Shown here one piece after another: positions 2-15,873 of a DNA stretch of 15,873 nt. The stretch is from the NCBI GenBank assembly GCA_049517415.1, contig JBEKSC010000037.1, positions 1 to 15,873 of the forward strand, written 5' to 3'. Each line of letters begins with the position of its first letter. Positions within the stretch are counted from its first letter, which is position 1. The translations under genes were made by a program, and so were the position numbers. This stretch comes from Candidatus Bathyarchaeia archaeon (GTDB taxonomy: Archaea > Thermoproteota > Bathyarchaeia > 40CM-2-53-6). The notes below the pieces were generated by a model, which was not told the origin of the DNA, made no database searches, and worked only from the letters and a program-made list of their open reading frames with translations.

Positions 2-931
2 TTAGTTCTCTTCTCAGCTAGTATCCTCAGAGTCAACGCTCAGACCACGACGATCGTTGACCTCCACTATCCTTCCCAAGTTGTGCTGCAGAACGGAGTG
101 GCTCAAGCGATTGTCACGTTTATTGTGGCTTACGGCGGGCTTCCATCGGGTGACGCGATAGTCTTCGCCGTAGTTTCGTTAGGCCCAATCCCAAGCTCTA
201 CGGGTATAGACGGATCGGGCAGCTCGACGCCTGACTCATGTCTGTCCTCGTGGGCCGGACAAAGTTGGCCTGGTAAGGCAGCGTGTGCTGTTGTTCCAAG
301 CTCAAGCTCAGGAACCGAATCCGTCACGTTAACAATCAAATCAGCCGCTTCGCCTCAACAGTACACTCTCGAGGTTATGGCTATTATCGTGGGTCCGTCG
401 GTTCCGTATAGCCCGATCAGCAGTTCAATGAGCCATCAGGTGTTCACGATCACCGTGGTTACAGCAGCCACGGATTGGGCGGTTCTTTCGGTTTCGTTGA
501 GTCCTTCTGCTCCGAATGTTGGTGACCCGGTAACATTCAGTATGGTGGTGACCGCGCTCTCGTCTACAGGATCATTTCCTCAGAGCTTCTCTGCACTTTG
601 CCAGATAGACGGAGTATCCTGTGGTGGTGGGTCCCTCTCCTACCCTGGACCAATGGGTACTCCTTTCACCGTAAGCACGCAAACGCCTTGGATTGCGACG
701 CCTGGTACGCACACATTGACCTGGGGAGTCGCGACGATTCCAGTGGATCTTGACCCGAATAAGAGTAACAATGCGATGAGCAAGAGCTTCACGGTTGCGC
801 CGCAGGTTTCCATATCGTCCACGACCACACCCGAATACCAGAACTATGTGCTGCCACTCATCGCATCTTTCGCATTAGTGATAATCATCCTCGCCAAGAA
901 AACGGGGAATGCGCCACACCAAGTAGTTTAG
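2..931 (+). CDS. Secreted cell-surface protein with CARDB/Ig-like domain and C-terminal membrane anchor (5'-partial)
   Basis: The frame is open from base 2 (LVLFSASILRVNAQTTT..., signal-peptide-like), so the start lies upstream of the window. It is Ser/Thr/Pro-rich, with CARDB-like 'DWAVLSVSLSPSAPNVGDPVTF...PGTHTL...DPNKSNN'. The tail is TPEY + hydrophobic helix + KK, resembling PEF-CTERM sorting signals. Confidence 0.75.
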   Translation, partial: LVLFSASILRVNAQTTTIVDLHYPSQVVLQNGVAQAIVTFIVAYGGLPSGDAIVFAVVSLGPIPSSTGIDGSGSSTPDSCLSSWAGQSWPGKAACAVVPSSSSGTESVTLTIKSAASPQQYTLEVMAIIVGPSVPYSPISSSMSHQVFTITVVTAATDWAVLSVSLSPSAPNVGDPVTFSMVVTALSSTGSFPQSFSALCQIDGVSCGGGSLSYPGPMGTPFTVSTQTPWIATPGTHTLTWGVATIPVDLDPNKSNNAMSKSFTVAPQVSISSTTTPEYQNYVLPLIASFALVIIILAKKTGNAPHQVV

Positions 932-1020
932 GTGTGTGACCGTCCAAAGTTGAACCGTCGTCCGTCGTCGTGCACGTAATTTGTGTGTGTGCGCACCACC
1001 ATACCCACCCACACACAAAA
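930..1020. repeat. Cassette-boundary element A: M1 (tRNA-end-like) + M2 (CGTCGTCCGTCGTCG) + M3 (TTTGTGTGTG) + GCACCACC + inverted M3
   Basis: ggtgtgtgaccgtccaaagttgaacc-gtcgtccgtcgtcg...tttgtgtgtg...gcaccacc...cacacacaaaa, overlapping the stop codon of the upstream gene. Confidence 0.8.
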
Positions 1021-1092
1021 CAATGACGTATGGTAGGGTTGTAAGTCGCCCACAACGAGTATACATCAGTCTGCGGACACTAGGCATCACGA

Positions 1093-2265
1093 GTGGGATC
1101 CGGTACGTCGCTCCTTGTTAAGCCGTTAGACGCAATTGTCGAAGCAGATTTGCAGTCTTTGATTGACAATAAAGTCGCTGAAGCCAAGTCTATCGAATAC
1201 AAATCGCTCTTGCCTGGTCCCACTGATGCTGAGAAAAGGGAATTCCTTTCTGATGTTTCATCGTTTGCTAACACAATAGGGGGGGACATCTTCTACGGAA
1301 TCCTTGAGTCTTCTGGTGTACCTACCGAGCTCAGGGGGATGCAGGTCGAAGACTCTGACGCACTCAAGCTTCGACTTGAAGACATAATGCGACACGGAAT
1401 TCAACCAAGAATAGCTGGCATTGCGTTACACGTCGTGCCCCTGCAATCCTCAGCCAAGGTAGTGATAATTCGTATTCCTAGAAGTTGGGCAGCACCACAT
1501 ATGGTTTCCTTCCAGAACTACTCTAGGTTCTTTGGCCGCAACTCAGCGGGAAAATACCAGCTTGATGTTACTGAAATTAGAGCTGCTTTCCTTCTTTCCG
1601 AGAATGCGTCAGAACGAATACGAGGATTTCGTGCTGATCGATTGGTTCGAATCCGTTCTGGCGATACTCCCGTACCATTGAAAGAGGGCGCCAAAATCGT
1701 ATTTCACATGATCCCACTAGGGGCTCTGGAAAGACCGACTAGCTTGAGTGTAGCTTCCTTGAAAGCAGTAGACTTGCAGCCTATGGCCGTCTCAAGCTGG
1801 AGCTATCGGTTAAATTTCGATGGAGCCCTTGGTTATTCACACCAATCATATCTTCAGGTATTTCGAAATGGTGTGCTAGAATCGGTGGAAGGGCTGCTTC
1901 TAGACGACGGTAAGATTCCATGTATAGCTTACGAGAAGGAACTGCTGGACGTGTTGTCTCAATATTTCTCAATCGGAAAGAGAATTGGAGTCGATCCCCC
2001 TAGTCTGGTGATGCTCAGCTTACTCGGCGTACGAGGATATACTATGGCTACCGGTCAGCCCTTCTCAGGGGAGGATCGGCATCAGATCGATAGACAGGAC
2101 CTTTTGGCGCCGCCCGCAATAATTGAGGATTACCAGTGCGATCCGCCAGAGGTGATGAGGCCCGCATTTGATTCAATCTGGAATGCCTGTGGATATCCTC
2201 GATCATTAAACTACGACAAGTCCGGAAAATGGGTGGGAATAGATAGGGTCAGCTCAACTAGCTGA
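1093..2265 (+). CDS. Schlafen/AlbA_2-domain protein (putative nuclease / nucleic-acid-binding)
   Basis: N-terminal 'EAKSIEYKS...EFLSDVSSFANTIGGDIFYGILE...VVIIRIPRS..APHMV...FFGRNSAG' is the AlbA_2 pattern; 390 aa. Confidence 0.85.
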   Translation: MGSGTSLLVKPLDAIVEADLQSLIDNKVAEAKSIEYKSLLPGPTDAEKREFLSDVSSFANTIGGDIFYGILESSGVPTELRGMQVEDSDALKLRLEDIMRHGIQPRIAGIALHVVPLQSSAKVVIIRIPRSWAAPHMVSFQNYSRFFGRNSAGKYQLDVTEIRAAFLLSENASERIRGFRADRLVRIRSGDTPVPLKEGAKIVFHMIPLGALERPTSLSVASLKAVDLQPMAVSSWSYRLNFDGALGYSHQSYLQVFRNGVLESVEGLLLDDGKIPCIAYEKELLDVLSQYFSIGKRIGVDPPSLVMLSLLGVRGYTMATGQPFSGEDRHQIDRQDLLAPPAIIEDYQCDPPEVMRPAFDSIWNACGYPRSLNYDKSGKWVGIDRVSSTS

Positions 2266-2300
2266 ATCATTGACAGCCTAGTCCTTTTGTTCGTTTCGTT

Positions 2301-2345
2301 TTTAGTGCGTGTGGTACTAATGGTGCGGGCAACCAAATTTGAACC
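2301..2345. repeat. Cassette-boundary element B: M3-N7-M1
   Basis: tttagtgcgtgtg-gtactaa-tggtgcgggcaaccaaatttgaacc, between two convergent stop codons. Confidence 0.8.
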
Positions 2346-2354
2346 GCTGAATCG

Positions 2355-3011
2355 TCAGTTGATCGGCGCGACGACTTTCTCGGCGATGTGAACTTTCGTC
2401 GATAACAATACCGACTTGCTGGTCACGTAACGTAGTCTCGCTCTCTCAAAGAGTGTCTGATATTCGATTGTTGAGTACAATTTCACATGAGCTGGTTCTT
2501 TCTTCTTGGCCAGTCTATCGAACATTCGTGTCATAAGCCCGTCTGCCGTCATGTCGAGGACATAGATTCTCCCGTTGGGCTTCAAGACTCGGTAGACCTC
2601 TCCAAGAACCTTGTCAGGACTGAAGTAATGATGAAACGAATTAGAGCAAATGACAAGGTCAAAGAAGTCATTGTCGAAGGGGAGTTCCTCAGCATTGGCT
2701 TTCCGAAAATGAACGTTGCTGTAACTCGTGGACCCTCCTTCCGCCTTCTCAATCATCTTAGATGAAATATCGACACCATAGAATTCTCCTCGTCCATCAG
2801 CCAAGCTGGCTGCGTAGTGCACAGCCCAACCAGTGCCACAGCCCAAGTCCAGAAAGCGGGGATTCCGGCCGAATTCTAAGAGGGAAAACAGTTTCTTTTG
2901 CATCCATCTGAGGTATCTGGACTCAAAGCTAAAGCGTGTATCAAACCAGCTCTCCGCCCTCAAATCCCACAATTCTTCGTTCAGCTTAGCATATTCATCC
3001 GCCTTTCCCAC
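2355..3011 (-). CDS. Class I SAM-dependent methyltransferase (UbiE/Methyltransf_11-like)
   Basis: Motif I FLDLGCGTG, GVDISSKM, AEELPFDNDFFDLV, EVYRVLKPNG. Confidence 0.92.
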   Translation of the reverse strand: MGKADEYAKLNEELWDLRAESWFDTRFSFESRYLRWMQKKLFSLLEFGRNPRFLDLGCGTGWAVHYAASLADGRGEFYGVDISSKMIEKAEGGSTSYSNVHFRKANAEELPFDNDFFDLVICSNSFHHYFSPDKVLGEVYRVLKPNGRIYVLDMTADGLMTRMFDRLAKKKEPAHVKLYSTIEYQTLFERARLRYVTSKSVLLSTKVHIAEKVVAPIN

Positions 3012-3119
3012 GTCTGGTGTTCCCCACTACACTCTCGCAGTGAGGTGTCTCACATTTACTTCTATTGACCGACCTAGCTCAGAATTCTCGCAAATGCTGG
3101 GAGAAAACGCGCCAGGAAC

Positions 3120-3206
3120 TGGTGTGTGGCGTCAGAATTTGAACCGTCGTCGTCCGTCGTCAAATGTGTGTGTGGATATGCTGGTGCGGGCACCTGAAAT
3201 TGAACC
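3120..3206. repeat. Cassette-boundary element C: M1-M2-M3-N7-M1
   Basis: tggtgtgtggcgtcagaatttgaacc-gtcgtcgtccgtcgtc-aaatgtgtgtgtg-gatatgc-tggtgcgggcacctgaaattgaacc. Confidence 0.85.
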
Positions 3207-3258
3207 GTCATTTTAGAGGCGTTTTGATGCCGACTTCCGGTTAGCCCATATTAGCGGA

Positions 3259-3645
3259 GTGGTTATGGGACTGATGCTGATTTTCTTGGAGATTCCAGTT
3301 ACAATTTACACGCTAAACCATCAACTGATCTACGATTTACTTGGAGAGAGTAGGGGAAGTCTAGGTACGCGGAAGCAATTGACAAGTGACTTGGCTGTTA
3401 GGTACGACAGCGCCAAAATTAGAACAGCTTTCGGACTTGCTGAAATGGTTCAGATAACGTTGATCGTAGCCGAAGATATCACTGAAGGAGTTGGGGCGAG
3501 TCTTATCGTCGATTGGCTGCTCAAGAAACTTAACACGAAGGAAGCCCAAGTAACCAAATTAGAAATCGACAAGGTTGCCGTGGAACTTGACGAAGACGAG
3601 ATCAAGAAAGCCGTGTTGGAGAGAATCACGAAGACAAGCCAGTAA
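3259..3645 (+). CDS. Hypothetical protein
   Basis: 128-aa ORF occupying most of the segment between elements C and D; no family recognised; start codon uncertain. Confidence 0.65.
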   Translation: MVMGLMLIFLEIPVTIYTLNHQLIYDLLGESRGSLGTRKQLTSDLAVRYDSAKIRTAFGLAEMVQITLIVAEDITEGVGASLIVDWLLKKLNTKEAQVTKLEIDKVAVELDEDEIKKAVLERITKTSQ

Positions 3646-3743
3646 AGCCCGTCCGGTCGCTTTGAAACTTGAGTCATTTAGGATACTTAGTCGCTATGAG
3701 AAATATGGCATTTTCAAGCATTGTATAGTCCGTCTGAGTGAGT

Positions 3744-3834
3744 TGGTGCGAACCTAGCAATTTGAATCGTCGTCCGTCGTCGTTCATGTAATTTTGTGTG
3801 TGGTACTAGTGGTGTGAGCACCAGAAATTGAACT
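3744..3834. repeat. Cassette-boundary element D: M1-M2-M3-N7-M1
   Basis: tggtgcgaacctagcaatttgaatc-gtcgtccgtcgtcg...ttttgtgtgtg-gtactag-tggtgtgagcaccagaaattgaact. Confidence 0.85.
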
Positions 3835-3910
3835 CAAAAAACTACGTTAACCTTAATCCTATGAGGTAGGCTCAGATGAGTATGCGCGCTCTGATAAAGA
3901 AGCTCGTCGA

Positions 3911-4588
3911 TTATCTTCCTGCTTTTAGTATCTTTTCTCTTCTCTCTTCTCCTTTCTCCTTCTCTTCTCCCTCTTCTCGCTTCTCTTCTTTGTCCTCTTC
4001 TCGTCTCTTTTCTGTTTTCTCCTTCTCTTGCTTCTTGTCTCTTTTCTCTTGTCGCTCCTCTTCTCTGTCCTCTTTCAGTCTATCTGTTCTTGTCGCTTCT
4101 CTTCTCTCTTCTCCTTTCTCCTTCTCTCCCAGTATCTGTAATCTCTCATTGTAAAAGCGAGAAGCTACTTCTAGAACATCTTCGATTCTTTCGCTCACAA
4201 ATTTACAGTCTTCAAGCGTTTTCACAAAGAAAACAACGCGGTCGGTGCGCCCTTCCTTCTCTACTTCTTCCTTCGCTCTCTCCGTCGCTTGTGCGGTCTT
4301 CGACAGGAGGTCCTGCATGACTTTGATGTACCTATCCTTTTCCTCTTGATGTTGAGTGGCTTCGAAGATAGCCTTGTTCACTACCAGTCTATATTTCCAA
4401 ACCGCTTCTTCAAAGTTTTCATCCTTGACACTTTTCTCCGCCTGCTCAATGAGGATCCCGAGGTCCTCTTTGGATATGGCGGCCATCGGATCTAAAGAGA
4501 GGCGTCTTGCGAGAAAATCATACAACTTTTCATCGTCTCCACATAGCTGCCGCAACCAACTTTCCTCTTCCTTCTCTTTTTCCCCCAT
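3911..4588 (-). CDS. Hypothetical alpha-helical protein with E/K/R-rich C-terminal tail
   Basis: 225-aa ORF, ATG start preceded by GGAGAG. The low-complexity charged tail explains the pyrimidine-rich + strand at ~3920-4130. Confidence 0.75.
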   Translation of the reverse strand: MGEKEKEEESWLRQLCGDDEKLYDFLARRLSLDPMAAISKEDLGILIEQAEKSVKDENFEEAVWKYRLVVNKAIFEATQHQEEKDRYIKVMQDLLSKTAQATERAKEEVEKEGRTDRVVFFVKTLEDCKFVSERIEDVLEVASRFYNERLQILGEKEKGEERREATRTDRLKEDREEERQEKRDKKQEKEKTEKRREEDKEEKREEGEEKEKGEERREKILKAGR

Positions 4589-4660
4589 GAGCAGTCTCTC
4601 CGGTTTATAGCACGAGTCTATTCCTTCTTATCTCTTCTGGGGGATTCCTCTCCAACCATT

Positions 4661-5011
4661 CCTAATGGAGCTAAGGAGAAAATCATTGGAGTGCTGGAGG
4701 CACGGTTCAACGAACAAGTACCCTACAAGGGTGAACGTCTGACGTGGTGTTCGGTGATTTCGGAGGAATGCGATGAGCTAGGCCGCTACTTGGTGGGCAA
4801 GTCTAGAACGATCGACTTCATGGAGCCTTCCCCAACTTTAGAGCGATTCGACAATAGGCGGTTGCGTTCTAAGATTTCCTCATTGAATGCCTCGGAAGCT
4901 AGACGTGTTGGCATTCCGAAACAAAGCCTTCAAGACTTGAAGGTGAAAGTTAGAAGCCCACAACCATTCAAACTACACGATGAGACCATGCGGAAATTGC
5001 TAGCAGTCTAG
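4661..5011 (+). pseudogene. cas1: Casposase (Cas1-solo) C-terminal remnant with HTH-like tail
   Basis: In-frame PNGAKEKIIGVLEARFNEQVPYKGERLTWCSVISEECDELGRYLVGKSRTIDFMEPSPTLERFDNRRLRSKISSL...GIPKQSL...PFKL resembles, from memory, the C-terminus of archaeal casposon Cas1. The N-terminal catalytic region is absent. Confidence 0.7.
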
Positions 5012-5026
5012 ATTCATTTAGCCAAG

Positions 5027-5822
5027 TCAAAGCAGGAGAGTGGCGCTCCTCCATAGACCTTCAAAGATATCCTTCATGATATCATAACTCTCGATGCGCA
5101 GCAGATATGTGGGCTTCATACCCGCATGCCTTATTGATTGGCCAAATACCCAACATGAGTCATCCACAAATGCGAATCTGTCATGACAATCGGTGGTTTT
5201 CCTCACTTCAAAATTGACTTCGGGTTTCTGTTTGAATTTCTGAGCTACCGTGACGAAGTTTGAGCTCGGACTCTTGGTGAGTATCCTAATGCTTACACCA
5301 TGCTGAACTTTGGTCCAAGTAGAGGTTCAGCACGTCCTCGCTTGCATATGCATCTGCGATCGCAAGCTCATTCGCAGCAGTTTGAACGAGTCTTAGGAAA
5401 TCCTTGTAGAAATCGTAAGGCGATGCTTTGGAGTAAATTCTTTCTTCAAAGGTGAACCCCCTAACAGCTGCCACACTTCTCGCATAGATTTCAGGAGGAA
5501 CCTTCATTCTCATATCCTTCTTGCTTCGGTTCAGGATATCAAGAACATACTTCGAGATCGGGGGATAGTCCGGTCTGTCGAATTCTGTTGTGTACACGGA
5601 ATACTCTATGATTGCGTCAATTAGCGAATTCATGACACGCCGGTAACCTATCGGGTAATTCCGTATTTCTGGAACAAGGTAACGTCCGACATTGTAAACA
5701 AAACTGGCGAGCGCACGCTGTCGGGCTGTTGTACCATATCTGTTGCGTTGGCGTGCCATTCGTAGTCGTAAGAGTTGCTGTCTGAATTCCGCATAACTTT
5801 GCTTGCCCTTTTTGAGAGACAT
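5027..5822 (-). pseudogene. Frameshifted gene with C-terminal PLD-like (HDRF-type) nuclease domain
   Basis: ORF 5822-5286 (...IADAYASEDVLNLYLD) continues after one extra base near 5312 as KVQHGVSIRILT...CHDRFAFVDDSCWVFGQSIRHAG...LWRSATLLL*, stop at 5027-5029. Confidence 0.75.
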
Positions 5823-5865
5823 GGTTCACACGAGTGACCTTACGTAGAGAGCTGGATGCCTTTGA

Positions 5866-5919
5866 ATGTGTGTGCACCACCAGACCAATCTCTAAGAACA
5901 AGGATGGTCACACACAAAA
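5866..5919. repeat. Cassette-boundary element E: M3 + GCACCACC + inverted M3
   Basis: atgtgtgtgcaccacc...ggtcacacacaaaa, same layout as the right half of element A. Confidence 0.7.
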
Positions 5920-5924
5920 GCTCT

Positions 5925-6689
5925 TCAGATCAAATTCTCAACAAACTCAAGTAGAACTTTCATGACATCGAGCTCTCTAGCAAGAACTTCCTGACAGTAT
6001 GGTGCAAGTTCGCGTTTCTTTTCATAAGTGAACGATGTCTCGCTAGGATTATCTGGAAGCATGAACAGGTTGATCTCAGTCGCCATACTCGGAGTATGAC
6101 TGAATCGTACTCGTGGACGGATTGCCGAGTGATGAGTAACAAAGTTTCTGTATTGCCGAAATTCGTAAATCCATCCTGTGTCGCAATCTTTCTTTAGTTC
6201 GGCGATCAGTGATCCTTCGAAGGGGCTTCTTGAGCTAGCTAGAAAATTCAATACAGTTGTGAAATACACGTTGCGTTTGTCGATCGCAGTTTCAACCAAC
6301 ATGGCGATTATTCCGCCGACAATGTCTAAAGCAGAATATGCAAAATAAAAGAAAAGATCTTCATAAAAGATGAAATCTTCCGGAATAGGGTCCATCAGGC
6401 CACGCATGGAGGCATCAATAGATCCCGTGTATTTTCCATATACTTTCAAAATATATTCCAGACCTCTAGCCGCCCAGCGCAGCTTGTAAAGGACTGATTC
6501 CATTCTGTAGGCAAAATCTCTTAGGTCGACAACAATTTCGTATCTTGTCTTGAAGCTCTGCTCAAAGTGGTTACTCGATCGATCCTTAACCTTGAAGGCT
6601 ATGCTGTTGTATGGTGTGAGCATTTCATCCCATTTTGTATGAATTATCTCTGGAAGATCGAGCCTTGTCTTGGGTGTTGAGTCGACCAA
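5925..6689 (-). CDS. HEPN-domain protein (Cthe_2314-like), putative RNase
   Basis: Helical 254-aa protein with 'FFYFAYSALDIVG' and the Rx4H motif 'YRNFVTHH'. Confidence 0.7.
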   Translation of the reverse strand: MVDSTPKTRLDLPEIIHTKWDEMLTPYNSIAFKVKDRSSNHFEQSFKTRYEIVVDLRDFAYRMESVLYKLRWAARGLEYILKVYGKYTGSIDASMRGLMDPIPEDFIFYEDLFFYFAYSALDIVGGIIAMLVETAIDKRNVYFTTVLNFLASSRSPFEGSLIAELKKDCDTGWIYEFRQYRNFVTHHSAIRPRVRFSHTPSMATEINLFMLPDNPSETSFTYEKKRELAPYCQEVLARELDVMKVLLEFVENLI

Positions 6690-6810
6690 TCATGAAGCCT
6701 CTGCATCTTGCGGTGGTATGACTTGATCAATTGAGCCTATCGGAGAGAGTCAAACGAAAATATCTATCGCTGACCTTGACCGCCTAAATCATGGAGATCA
6801 TGGAAAGTCG

Positions 6811-6878
6811 CTTTGTGTGTGACTCCGTTGGTGCAGGCAAGCGAATTTGAACCGGCCGTTCGTAGTTTGCGTGTGTGG
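6811..6878. repeat. Cassette-boundary element F: M3-N7-M1 followed by degenerate M2-M3
   Basis: ctttgtgtgtg-actccgt-tggtgcaggcaagcgaatttgaacc-ggccgttcgtag-tttgcgtgtgtgg. Confidence 0.8.
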
Positions 6879-6899
6879 TGTGTGTGCTGCGTGTAGGTG

Positions 6900-6973
6900 T
6901 GGGAGAGAGAGTATAGGGGAATAGAAGAATATGAAAAGAATGGGGCGTTAGCTAGGGCAGAAGAGAAGGGGGG
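6900..6973 (-). terminator. Pyrimidine-rich tract on the minus strand, possible archaeal terminator/trailer
   Basis: The + strand is strongly purine-rich here (gggagagagag...gaagagaaggggg), directly downstream of the minus-strand CCA at 6980. Confidence 0.35.
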
Positions 6974-6978
6974 TATCA

Positions 6979-6993
6979 ATGGTGCGGCCGCCG
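6979..6993 (-). repeat. 15-bp exact copy of the tRNA-Gly 3' end (att/TSD-like direct repeat of 13442-13456)
   Basis: atggtgcggccgccg occurs at 6979-6993 and 13442-13456. Confidence 0.85.
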
Positions 6994-7295
6994 AGAACCA
7001 TGATTCAAACGTGGTTCCCACGGTTCGGCCTAGGTCACAAATCTCAGACAATCATAGAATAGTAACTGCAGACATTTTTGCTTTGTTGTGAATTCAAATC
7101 CCGCCGAATCCGATCCATTTTCACTCCGAGATTTCGTCGGAGACATCGGAACGCTGGCCTGACCCGTCCAGTCCTTCTCAGTTCCGACGGCACAGTGATC
7201 TGGATCAACGCAAACGGATACTCAGAAGGAACAGCATCCGAGCTGCTCCCACGACGATTAGTCGTGAAACAAGTACCCCTCTAGGATGATGCCGC
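6980..7295 (-). ncRNA. Candidate structured RNA ending in a tRNA-like acceptor strand and CCA
   Basis: About six abutting helices in an intergenic region. It starts GCGGC and ends CGGCCGC-A-CCA, and the last hairpin has the T-loop-like loop TTTGAAT. Confidence 0.45.
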
Positions 7296-13280: not shown

Positions 13281-13442
13281 AGAGCGACGAATGGATTGTA
13301 GTGTCTGCTGGGGAAGGTAGATGGGAGTTATTCTCTTCGGTTTTGTGCGAGCACGCATGTGGAAGTGGTTCTGCCAAGCGTTATAGAACGGAACAGGTTC
13401 TCAACACTGCAGCTTGCTAATGTTTAGACATTAATGTCTAGA

Positions 13443-13622
13443 TGGTGCGGCCGCCGGGATTCGGACCCGGGTTTCCTCGTTGCTGCTATCGCAGCTTTGA
13501 GGCTTGGGAAGCCCCCGTCATAGACCAGGCTATCCTTCCAACCTTTTCAGGCTGGGGAACTGGACCACGGCCTAATGGAGCAATCCGTGCTCACGCACTC
13601 AGAGTCCAGCCACGACGACCGC
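13443..13622 (-). tRNA. tRNA-Gly(CCC) with three introns (13567-13614, 13530-13559, 13473-13496) and encoded CCA
   Basis: Removing 48+30+24 nt gives a 78-nt cloverleaf: GCGGTCG TG GTC CAGCCTGGTCTAT GAC G GGGGC TTCCCAA GCCTC AAAC CCGGG TCCGAAT CCCGG CGGCCGC A CCA. Confidence 0.85.
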
Positions 13623-14729: not shown

Positions 14730-15873
14730 TTAGGCTTCCATGAAGTCTTCTGCCTTCTGTGGTTCAGGCGGTAAGCCTTTGCGTTCGCGGATGCCGGTGA
14801 TGACCTGGGTTACTAGGGAATTCGGGACGGGTGCCCAACGGGAGAACTCCAATCCCCAGAATGCCCGCCCTTGGGAAGCGCCACGCATAACCTCCGAGAG
14901 GTCGAAGGTTTCAGCTGTTGGGAGTTCCCCAACCACGTAGACGAGGTGGCCGCGTTGGTCGACCGAGAGGATTTTCCCGCGTTTCTGTGAGATTACACTT
15001 GTCGCTGCACCTAGGAGCTCTGGTGGGACCTTGACCGTGATTTTTTGGACTGGCTCCAACAGAACAGGGTCTGCGCTGAGGAATGCCACGAAGAATGCCC
15101 TTCTGCTCATAGGCATGATTTGGGCCGGTCCTCTGTGCACGGGGTCTTCGTGGAGTGAGATATCTGTGACCTTTGCCCTGACGCCTCGAATCTGCTCATA
15201 CGCGAGGGGGCCTTCTTTTATTCCCCAGCGGTAACCTGCAATAACCATTTCCTTGACCTCTTGGACGTACTGAGCCCCTTTCGTCACTTCCAGGAGCATG
15301 TTGCTTCCCTCGTCAACGCTCCACACTCCACGGGCTTCGTCGGGAGGCCACCCTTCTTCTCGCAGAACCTTGGCCATTTCATGTTTGTCTTGGTATTCCC
15401 CGATCTTGCCTTCCTTGATCATGGTGACGATTTTGTCGGGTAGGGGTTCAACTTCCAGGTAGATCTTGTTGTGCTTGTTAGGTGACTTGCCTTCCACAGG
15501 CCCAGCGCGCCCCCTGACGCTTTCGCGGTAAATCACGATCGGTTTGGAGGTTACTATTTCCAAGCCGGTTTTCGTTATTAGCGTGTTCGCTATTTCCAAG
15601 TGCAGCGTGCCCATTCCGGCTATTAGGTACTCGCCGGTTTCTTCATTGATTTTCGTCACGAGGTTCGGGTCTTCGAGGCTCAACCTTCGCAGTACTTCCA
15701 CGAGTTTAGGAAGGTCCCTGCTGTATTTCGGTTCCACTGCCATCGTAACCACGGGTTCGGTGACATAGTGGACGGCTTCGAAGGGCGCGATGTCCTTTAT
15801 TGTTGATAGTGTTTCGCCCGCCTTCGCAGCATCTAAGCCTAGAAGGGCGGGTATATTGCCGGCGCTTATTGTG
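14730..15873 (-). CDS. fusA: Archaeal translation elongation factor 2 (5'-partial; gene extends beyond the window)
   Basis: AVEPKYSRDLPKL, EDP, GMGTLHLE, KSPNKHNK, diphthamide loop LHEDPVHRGPAQ, LLEPVQ. Confidence 0.97.
   Translation of the reverse strand, partial: TISAGNIPALLGLDAAKAGETLSTIKDIAPFEAVHYVTEPVVTMAVEPKYSRDLPKLVEVLRRLSLEDPNLVTKINEETGEYLIAGMGTLHLEIANTLITKTGLEIVTSKPIVIYRESVRGRAGPVEGKSPNKHNKIYLEVEPLPDKIVTMIKEGKIGEYQDKHEMAKVLREEGWPPDEARGVWSVDEGSNMLLEVTKGAQYVQEVKEMVIAGYRWGIKEGPLAYEQIRGVRAKVTDISLHEDPVHRGPAQIMPMSRRAFFVAFLSADPVLLEPVQKITVKVPPELLGAATSVISQKRGKILSVDQRGHLVYVVGELPTAETFDLSEVMRGASQGRAFWGLEFSRWAPVPNSLVTQVITGIRERKGLPPEPQKAEDFMEA

Follow-up and report, generated by a model that had tools for sequence, protein, structure and literature searches.

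We analyzed a window of 15,873 bp that is the entire contig C37 (JBEKSC010000037.1) of an archaeal genome, a Candidatus Bathyarchaeia assembly of 2.65 Mb in fifty-nine contigs. This source genome is labeled G000 below; G0xx labels denote genomes of relatives and Cxx labels denote contigs. Positions 931-7010 of the window are very probably an insertion array, old and in partial decay, of a casposon-like transposon family in this peat Bathyarchaeia genome, which uses a Cas1 integrase (casposase) and has no polymerase gene. The process has stopped in the window: of the casposase only a C-terminal stump is left, several modules have degenerated, and in the population the arrangement is fixed.

The anatomy of the family is clearest in its autonomous elements. 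One of these, 8.6 kb long (C3:143156-151769), carries a cas1 gene for 410 amino acids at C3:145166-146398 (PF01867, E = 5e-52) between CACACAC/GTGTGTG tips, beginning with CACACACAC and finishing with GTGTGTGTG. The same 14-mer, GGTATAGTGGTGCG, lies on both flanks, and its right copy directly abuts a leader, GGCATCCAGATTTGAAC. Read on the sense strand, the order is leader (GTTCAAAT-N5-NGCC), 14-bp target (CGCACCA+N7) and tip. Three other Cas1 elements, those of G048 (7.1 kb), G076 (9.4 kb), and G045 (11 kb), likewise stand between matching 14-bp repeats (14/14) with a leader. The G052 element (4.9 kb) begins so close to the contig start that only 10 nucleotides of its left 14-mer are present, and these match. 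All five elements, from five genomes, have tips at both ends, of either the CACACAC or the CCGCCGCC flavor. The inverted repeats continue into GACGACG-rich motifs (M2, below), and in G048 the terminal inverted repeat (TIR) is more than 50 nt long and includes GACGACG runs. With a full-length casposase and matching 14-bp direct repeats exactly next to the leader, autonomous elements with these ends transpose with a 14-bp target-site duplication (TSD). The C3 element has neighbors of its own kind: an identical 14-mer occurs at three seams and a variant with three mismatches at a fourth, and this sharing of one 14-mer makes C3:135-152k a tandem array of three elements. That array lies inside a 23.6-kb stretch (C3:128103-151890) with tRNA-Ser(GGA) on one side and, at 151867, a 22/24 copy of this tRNA's 3' end on the other; the stretch may be a tyrosine-integrase-type integrated element carrying the array.

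Five Cas1 loci are present in G000. Two are full-length (C3:145166-146398, and C8:20750-21964 with 404 amino acids, 72 per cent identical to the C3 enzyme), two are fragments on C3 and C9, and the last is the window remnant at 4661-5011. The Cas1 genes of C3, C8, G048, G052, G076, and G045 match PF01867 with E-values of 1e-51 to 5e-56. The best structural match of the C3 casposase is PDB 6opm_A (E = 6.9e-71; query 9-404, chain 22-411), and the next best is a CRISPR Cas1 at 3e-25. This alignment reaches the C-terminus and includes the helix-turn-helix (HTH) region that family 2 casposases have there. The match is labeled only as Cas1; 6opm is presumably the Methanosarcina mazei family 2 casposase.

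No PolB domain was found in the open reading frames (ORFs) of the C3 and C8 elements. No polymerase was found in the twenty-nine ORFs scanned out of forty-one in the G048, G052, G076, and G045 elements, the remaining twelve being G045 ORFs, and the scanned ORFs of TSD-bounded elements include no HNH gene. Across G000 as a whole, PF03175 (protein-primed PolB) is absent, the four PF00136 PolB genes all lie outside site-bounded elements, and no Cas2 gene was found. A family B polymerase gene at C8:27130-28287 (870-aa frame) stands about 4 kb from the C8 casposon array, again outside site-bounded elements.

The same anatomy recurs in the window. A previous sequence-only reading had described six intergenic sites (A to F) sharing three motifs, and these repeats are real, with counts far above expectation and shuffles. 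Searched as GGTGYR-N5..14-AAWTTGAAY against a null of 200 shuffles, M1 has six matches, all on the plus strand (2322, 3121, 3183, 3745, 3811, and 6830), where 0.01 are expected and none of the 200 shuffles reaches six. A degenerate seventh copy at 931-955 was found by reading the sequence. The claim of seven copies in the same orientation therefore holds if the degenerate one is counted, but the single 'N' given as their spacer is really 8-9 nt, and even a fixed gap of 9 nt recovers only one copy. M2 (CGTCGTCCGTCGTC, tested at up to two mismatches with 200 shuffles) has three exact copies (956, 3148, and 3768) against 0.07 expected, and no shuffle reaches three. M3 (TTTGTGTGTG, up to one mismatch) has eight matches against 0.95 expected, two of them on the minus strand (1010-1019 and 5909-5918). 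The motif order is constant (M1, M2, about 10 nt, M3, 7 nt, M1) with a period of about 65 nt, and one site amounts to one to one-and-a-half turns of this unit. A seventh, outermost site at 6973-7010 was not among the six described before.

Because the Cas1 elements show this anatomy, M3 and M2 together can be read as an inverted-repeat end and M1 as leader plus target duplication. M3 is the CACACAC tip of the TIR and M2 the subterminal GACGACG-rich motif. On the minus strand M1 is the leader GTTCAAAT-N5-NGCC followed by the 14-bp target CGCACCA+N7. Written as GTTCAAAT, 5 nt, NGCCCGC, A, and CCA, it reproduces exactly the layout of a tRNA 3' end between T-loop and CCA, a shape that the earlier reading had rightly noticed; tRNA genes of G000 encode CCA. 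Genome-wide, the combination of 14-mer and tip has fifty-two matches: twenty-five are preceded by a leader, fifteen by the tip of another element (a tandem seam), and twelve by neither. In the window, sites A (980-1019) and E (5861-5921) are tip-14-mer-tip seams, and B, C, D, F, and the outer site at 6973-7010 are of the leader type. The features of the array, in window coordinates, are as follows.

931-955, minus strand: degenerate M1 copy (leader and 14-mer-like stretch), which closes the array at its far end as the last target copy, unoccupied, and shares bases with the stop codon (929-931) of the ORF at 2-931; it falls in direct-repeat families D3 and D4.
956-991, minus strand: solo inverted-repeat end, with M2 at 956-969 and a GTGTGTG tip at 980-991; tip and GACGACG are as at the ends of Cas1 elements.
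992-1005, plus strand: 14-mer CGCACCACCATACC between two outward-facing tips, a seam type found fifteen times genome-wide and also in the C3 tandem array.
1006-2313: Schlafen/AlbA_2 cassette with CACACAC-type tips at both ends (1006 and 2313) and an ORF at 1093-2265 (plus strand, 390 aa; PF04326, E = 8e-11).
2314-2344, minus strand: site B, of class 'leader', with 14-mer GTACTAATGGTGCG (2314-2327) and leader GGCAACCAAATTTGAAC (2328-2344).
2345-3119: S-adenosylmethionine (SAM)-dependent methyltransferase cassette, ORF 2355-3011 (minus strand), with paralogues near sites on C4 and C41 and a 78 per cent identical copy on G030:C9.
3120-3174, minus strand: inner half of site C, with M1 (3120-3144), M2 (3145-3161), and tip (3162-3174), which together make a long inverted-repeat end that contains a target copy of its own (families D2 and D3).
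3175-3205, minus strand: outer half of site C, with 14-mer GATATGCTGGTGCG (3175-3188) and leader GGCACCTGAAATTGAAC (3189-3205), an M1 pattern match; the leader accompanies cassette 3 in other genomes and the 14-mer does not.
3189-3802: cassette 3, the best-conserved mobile unit of the window, with leader, ORF 3259-3645 (plus strand, 128 aa), inner M1 (3744-3767), M2 (3768-3783), and tip (3791-3802); its edges come from alignment with nine copies.
3803-3833, minus strand: outer half of site D, with 14-mer GTACTAGTGGTGTG and leader AGCACCAGAAATTGAAC, an M1 pattern match.
3836-4639: module with a low-complexity ORF at 3911-4588 (minus strand, 225 aa, function not assigned), 90 per cent identical to G044:C69:12276-13085, where the copy ends in tip and 14-mer.
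4661-5011, plus strand: casposase (Cas1) C-terminal remnant, 40 per cent identical to residues 296-407 of the intact enzyme (E = 3e-26); it comprises about 110 last residues without the catalytic part and groups with the four other Cas1 loci, and the casposase search across genomes places it at 4661-5002.
5027-5822, minus strand: two ORFs, 5027-5206 (59 aa, a fragment that matches the PADLOC PDC-S05 C-terminus) and 5286-5822 (178 aa, no family match).
5861-5888, plus strand: site E, with tip TTTGAATGTGTGTG (5861-5874) and 14-mer-like CACCACCAGACCAA (5875-5888), family D5; the G049 copy has leader and CGCACCACTATAGG at this position.
5895-6821: cassette with an ORF at 5925-6689 (minus strand, 254 aa) that weakly matches HEPN (PF18730, E = 2.6e-4, below the family cut-off), and inverted CACACACAAA(A)GC repeats at 5909-5921 and 6810-6821.
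6822-6852, minus strand: site F, with 14-mer ACTCCGTTGGTGCA and leader GGCAAGCGAATTTGAAC, an M1 pattern match.
6853-6972, minus strand: remnant of the first inserted element, with M2-like CGGCCGTTCGTAG (6853-6865), a tip-like run (6866-6886), filler, and a G-rich tip (6962-6972); this G/C-rich tip flavor is also found on C9 and C39 and in G045, G048, and G052.
6973-7010, minus strand: outermost target, 14-mer GTATCAATGGTGCG and a tRNA-end-like stretch without T-arm, within which 6980-6992 equals real tRNA 3' ends.

Read from the right on the minus strand, the array starts with the outer target (7010-6973) and the remnant of the first element, which ends in leader F. There follow 14-mer F, the HEPN-like cassette, seam E, the casposase stump with three ORFs, leader and 14-mer D, and cassette 3. 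Leader and 14-mer C, the second long end with the methyltransferase, leader and 14-mer B, the Schlafen cassette, seam A, and the solo end complete the order. The same grammar of tip, body, leader, 14-mer, and tip is found on C12, C39, and C53. As the sequence-only reading stated, the genes between sites are unrelated and stand one to a segment except between D and E, although that segment holds four ORFs, including the Cas1 remnant, and not three. It was also right that several stop codons (929-931, 2355-2357, and 5925-5927) fall some 10 nt or less from a site, here A, B, and E respectively. Two of its remarks on the enzyme hold as well: there is no intact recombinase in the window, where only the casposase remnant was found and PF00589 is absent from the contig, and the Cas1-solo gene it suggested looking for exists as that remnant and as the intact casposases of C3 and C8.

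Searching the cargo with PADLOC and NCBIfam added only a mad2-like methyltransferase match and the PDC-S05 fragment. Paralogues of the methyltransferase (32-36 per cent identity) at C4:127650-128432 and C41:9675-10334 both adjoin casposon sites, so this type of enzyme is recurrent cargo. To the left of the array, the ORF at 2-931 (plus strand, cut by the contig start) includes a 112-residue segment 79 per cent identical to an ORF next to casposon sites at C39:412-1749 (minus strand); PADLOC, NCBIfam, and domain scans of the window gave no family match for it. To the right of about 7100 the genes are ordinary, among them SOUL, UvdE, and TruD, with aEF-2 last.

We propose that such arrays form with casposase supplied in trans from copies such as C3:145166-146398. 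The enzyme would cut at the boundary of leader and 14-mer and duplicate the 14-mer, an activity and a target choice that we deduce from sequence only. Many element ends appear to hold their own leader and 14-mer copy and many cassettes to finish in a leader, so that every insertion would make a new landing site. Later insertions would stack or nest, leaving genes separated by composites of leader, 14-mer, and tip, along with 'empty' units of 65 nt.

A profile of the unit (nhmmer) has eighty-four matches in G000 at E < 1 and fifty-six at E ≤ 0.01. The latter fall into eighteen clusters, several at contig ends, and are not dispersed through ordinary intergenic DNA, the outcome that would have spoken against the earlier proposal of a gene-capture locus. 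Stretches within 1 kb of a match make up only 2.7 per cent of the genome, and those within 3.5 kb of a site 5.8 per cent. All Cas1 matches of G000 fall in these clusters, and all five Cas1 loci are at most 2.8 kb from a site. We also scanned 105 genomes of the order for GGTGCGRGC-N5,6-AAWTTGAAC, with the reversed motif as control. The motif occurs in 34 of the 105 (18/22 in genus g1, 9/10 in g5, 0/22 in g2) and the control in none. A casposase at E ≤ 1e-10 is present in forty-five (14/22, 8/10, and 0/22 in the same genera), some of the weak matches (about 30 per cent identity) probably being CRISPR Cas1. Among the fifty-nine genomes of the family, G000 included, twenty-one have motif and casposase, seven the motif only, two casposase only, and twenty-nine neither.

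Cassettes of the array are found again in other genomes. Copies of cassette 3 at 82-98 per cent identity occur in eleven of the twenty-two genomes of the same genus. The UvdE and TruD genes of the window have DNA matches in only three of these genomes, at 67-80 per cent identity, and the flanking SOUL gene is 77 per cent identical to its G044 copy. The presence of cassette 3 at such identity in eleven species, compared with 67-80 per cent for core genes, indicates lateral spread. An alignment of the window with nine copies from eight genomes (the partial copies L041 and L042 left out) shows a shared block that ends sharply at the tip and at the boundary of leader and 14-mer. The protein encoded at 3259-3645 has 194 homologue clusters at E ≤ 1e-3; the best 120 have 82-98 per cent identity and none is named. 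Many homologues are on very short contigs, and three of those listed are labeled Candidatus Bathyarchaeia. It is a very abundant mini-element protein of unassigned function. The 3836-4639 module recurs at 90 per cent identity in G044 and at 74-82 per cent in four further genomes, and the HEPN-like cassette on G049:C18 (88 per cent) and G044:C56 (78 per cent). In G052, two cassettes that are adjacent in the window stand 3 kb apart in the opposite order. Cassette content and order thus differ between related genomes, in line with the earlier reading. G044 is the only one of the twenty-two genomes with the SOUL gene, and what surrounds the gene there is a further casposon-site island, no empty site.

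At least 98 per cent of the array's words are present in twenty sequencing runs. Summed metagenome contig depth spikes two- to sixfold at 802-1068, 2137-2403, 3739-4005, and 6943-7209; these spikes fall at sites, so the end modules are multi-copy in the community.

Several observations count against an array built by casposase. There is no intact casposase in the window, and no window cassette has matching 14-mers on its two sides. For cassette 3 the 14-mers are mismatched in all four copies that can be read on both sides (window, L032, L033, and L034), and around the Schlafen and HEPN-like cassettes the 14-mers stand in inverted and not in direct orientation. A leader-to-tip cassette with identical 14-mers occurs just once in G000 (C12:2171-3461), and its N7 is the commonest one, so that a chance match has a likelihood of about 1 in 10. 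Long contigs of four runs (2014-2025) match the array with no or almost no differences. They contain no credible excision joint, the joints listed (sides of 21-40 nt) being cross-matches between repeat units; contigs drop rare variants, so this search is no evidence either way. Across relatives, seven genomes of the family have sites without a detected casposase, and G065 and G066 have casposases 60-61 per cent identical yet no match to the motif. The co-occurrence of motif and casposase tracks genera, so it is not independent evidence; it supports a link and does not prove one.

The mismatched flanks bear most directly on how the short cassettes moved. We tried models with a 14-bp TSD on the leader-to-tip unit, with a 7-bp or 31-bp duplication, and with a single reciprocal crossover with a circle; each was rejected when the matching or conserved N7 it predicts was not seen. 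We infer that short cassettes were either moved by casposase, using the tip and the leader junction as ends, or reshuffled by recombination between end modules. A stronger form of the latter would make the array a mosaic, with Cas1 elements having seeded the repeats and host homologous (ectopic) recombination between end modules of 45-90 nt having shuffled the cargo. The flanking 14-mers, mismatched or inverted at every short cassette examined, speak for it, and more than fifty repeat modules per genome offer substrates. Many sites lie at contig ends, and on C39 a segment of 4167 bp is bracketed by copies of the composite module, each of which has two identical 14-mers. We nonetheless hold this mosaic to be unlikely, if worth serious attention. 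The cassette 3 blocks end at the tip and at the leader/14-mer boundary, the two bonds on which a casposase acts, and not at variable points within the repeats, and the homology available is short, with conserved runs of 8-12 nt split by the variable N5 and N7. A bolder version of the casposase reading is that a lone Cas1 integrase builds self-renewing cassette arrays, in which tip-to-leader cassettes recreate the landing site at every insertion and the array would grow as leader, 14-bp repeat, kilobase insert, 14-bp repeat, and leader. We put this forward tentatively, as a possibility that somewhat less than half persuades us.

The remaining explanations do without a casposase. The sites could be scars of tyrosine-integrase elements that entered one tRNA gene in succession and left an att copy of the tRNA 3' end each time. 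This would fit the tRNA geometry of M1, the C3 island between tRNA-Ser and the 22/24 copy of its end, and the 13 nt of real tRNA end at the edge of the array (6980-6992, identical to G000 tRNA 3' ends carrying GGCGGCCGCACCA at C37 6992 on the minus strand, C1, C34, and C37 13455). It is very improbable, given that M1 copies differ from each other and from all real tRNAs in the pentamer (thirty-nine distinct among fifty-four copies genome-wide; N7, forty-five distinct) and have no T-stem partner. Fewer than four of five T-stem pairs form in the fifty-four copies compared with five of five in sixteen real tRNA ends, and pairing of the variable pentamer with upstream bases is sporadic (C9 and C47). 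The duplication is also only 14 bp and adjoins inverted tips, and the segments, of 0.6-2 kb, hold no integrase. The closest real tRNA ends, which are that of tRNA-Arg(TCT) on C1, an end on C34, and an end at about 13455 in the window, differ from the M1 consensus at two of nineteen constrained positions. ARAGORN called no tRNA gene at the sites or in 6960-7110 and Rfam found none there at E up to 10, with only 13-15 nt matching real tRNA ends; with no tRNA called and the T-stem partner missing in fifty-four copies, we rejected M1 copies as tRNA genes or pseudogenes. An integron-like platform, in which a tyrosine recombinase captures circular cassettes at attC-like M1-M2-M3 sites, was the proposal of the sequence-only reading. 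Genes in mixed orientation between recurring composite sites and a cassette order that varies among genomes speak for it, as might a weak tyrosine-recombinase match (E = 6.9e-5, short of the family cut-off) at C9:18957-19538 within the C9 island, where it has a Cas1 fragment on one side and a casposon site on the other. PF00589, however, has no match on C37 and only six in the genome (on C2, C3, C16, and C9), none beside an array except the weak one on C9, and inverted tips with 14-bp duplications around Cas1 genes are the signature of transposition. The modules being the TIRs and the leader/14-bp TSD of Cas1 transposons, what survives of that proposal is a site-directed locus of cassette accretion, and we give its attC sites and tyrosine recombinase very little credence. 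Least credible of all are dispersed repeats of a regulatory or structural kind, unrelated to gene mobility, such as repetitive extragenic palindromes, miniature inverted-repeat elements (REP/MITE), or small RNAs. Units of 65 nt do occur in cargo-free tandem (C2:800-1045), and GTGTGTG...CACACAC pairs could form hairpins. Such pairs are accounted for as seams between two element tips, however; the units are clustered as described above and tied to Cas1 loci, and Rfam gave no family match.

A genuine tRNA 3' end does lie elsewhere in the window, at about 13431-13600 on the minus strand, with five of five T-stem pairs and the form CCCGGGTCCGAATCCCGG, CGGCCGC, ACCA. Missed by ARAGORN and Rfam, it probably belongs to an intron-split tRNA gene, and from its sequence its CGCACCA+N7 end looks like an unoccupied natural casposase target.

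The closest known relatives of a casposase-built array are the family 2 casposons. Those of M. mazei, in the portion of the original report available to us (PMC4779613), show an invariant 5' CGCA in their 14-bp TSD, target the 3' end of tRNA-Leu or intergenic look-alikes, and form tandem arrays sharing one TSD as well as solo TIRs. The Bathyarchaeia elements resemble them in full-length casposase architecture (judged by the 6opm_A match), in a 14-bp TSD starting with CGCA, in tRNA-end or look-alike targets, in shared-TSD tandem arrays, and in solo TIRs next to CGCA. They differ in having no family B polymerase or HNH gene in the TSD-bounded elements scanned, in their CACACAC or C-rich tips and GACGACG subterminal motifs, and in ends and cassettes that carry their own leader and target; most units are enzyme-less single-gene cassettes, and the host is a member of the Bathyarchaeia. 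Of the features that defined casposons in 2014-2017 (Cas1, PolB, TIR, and TSD), the autonomous elements have Cas1 and TIRs and lack PolB in the ORFs scanned; 14/14 flanks occur at the Cas1 elements of G000 C3, G048, G076, and G045 and at no window cassette. A 2023 review, in the part available, likewise defines casposons by cas1-polB islands (PMC9939771).

Family 1 elements of Thaumarchaeota (NitNF5-C1/C2 in ef-2) share target reuse leading to TIR-TSD-TIR arrays and a cargo of HEPN and methyltransferase type, but according to the available sections of that study have a protein-primed PolB, no C-terminal HTH, and mostly an ef-2 target (PMC6563490); the ef-2 gene of our window (14730-15872) has no site. 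The available part of another study reports that the family 1 casposase can use substrates as short as 7 nt and as long as 4 kb (PMC8464041). The 'family 5' casposases of hot springs, the one printed suggestion of polymerase-less Cas1-solo elements, are also Cas1-solo enzymes with TIRs and mostly without polymerase, read by their authors as non-self-replicating transposons. Unlike family 2 they have no C-terminal HTH, and they branch near subtype I-A Cas1. The enzyme here, in contrast, can be aligned with 6opm all the way to its C-terminus, and target-bearing ends or cassette arrays are not described in the sections of that report at hand (PMC9755687).

Two other systems are alike in outcome or logic. 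In our arrays, as in integrons, genes accumulate at one locus with a recurring site and the set varies, a likeness of outcome. Integrons gather unrelated, often promoter-less genes at one locus, split by a recurring site, in a set that differs between strains. Here no tyrosine recombinase of the IntI type was found, an insertion duplicates 14 bp, and transposon tips are part of the cassettes. The sites, as we read their letters, form an ordered direct array (leader, 14-mer, tip, M2), unlike attC sites, which are imperfectly palindromic and fold in single-stranded form. CRISPR arrays share with them a leader-guided integrase of the Cas1 family that duplicates the adjacent repeat, giving strings of leader, repeat, insert, and repeat. 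The inserts here, in contrast, are gene modules of 0.6-9 kb (CRISPR spacers are 26-72 bp), the 14-mers are variable, and no Cas2 was found in a search that covered Cas1 and Cas2.

Judged by titles and the starts of abstracts, the literature yielded no description of such casposon elements from Bathyarchaeia. Here a family 2-type casposase goes with small polymerase-less elements and with strings of enzyme-less cassettes that leader-plus-repeat modules separate; published casposons are large and polymerase-bearing. The window is a decayed example, and its value rests with the family. A target of 31 bp (17-nt leader and 14-mer) and intact enzymes make the family a system that is directly testable in vitro. 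It suggests a second route, beside integrons and Tn7-like islands, for gathering accessory genes at defined sites; among the cargo are genes of the Schlafen/AlbA_2, HEPN-like, and methyltransferase types. The CRISPR adaptation machinery has been proposed to descend from casposons, and the array-building behavior that this scenario requires is seen here with gene-sized inserts. If the arrays are truly self-renewing, they would offer a living analogue of the transition that has been proposed from casposon to CRISPR array and, in capturing defense-type genes, an archaeal equivalent of the integron.

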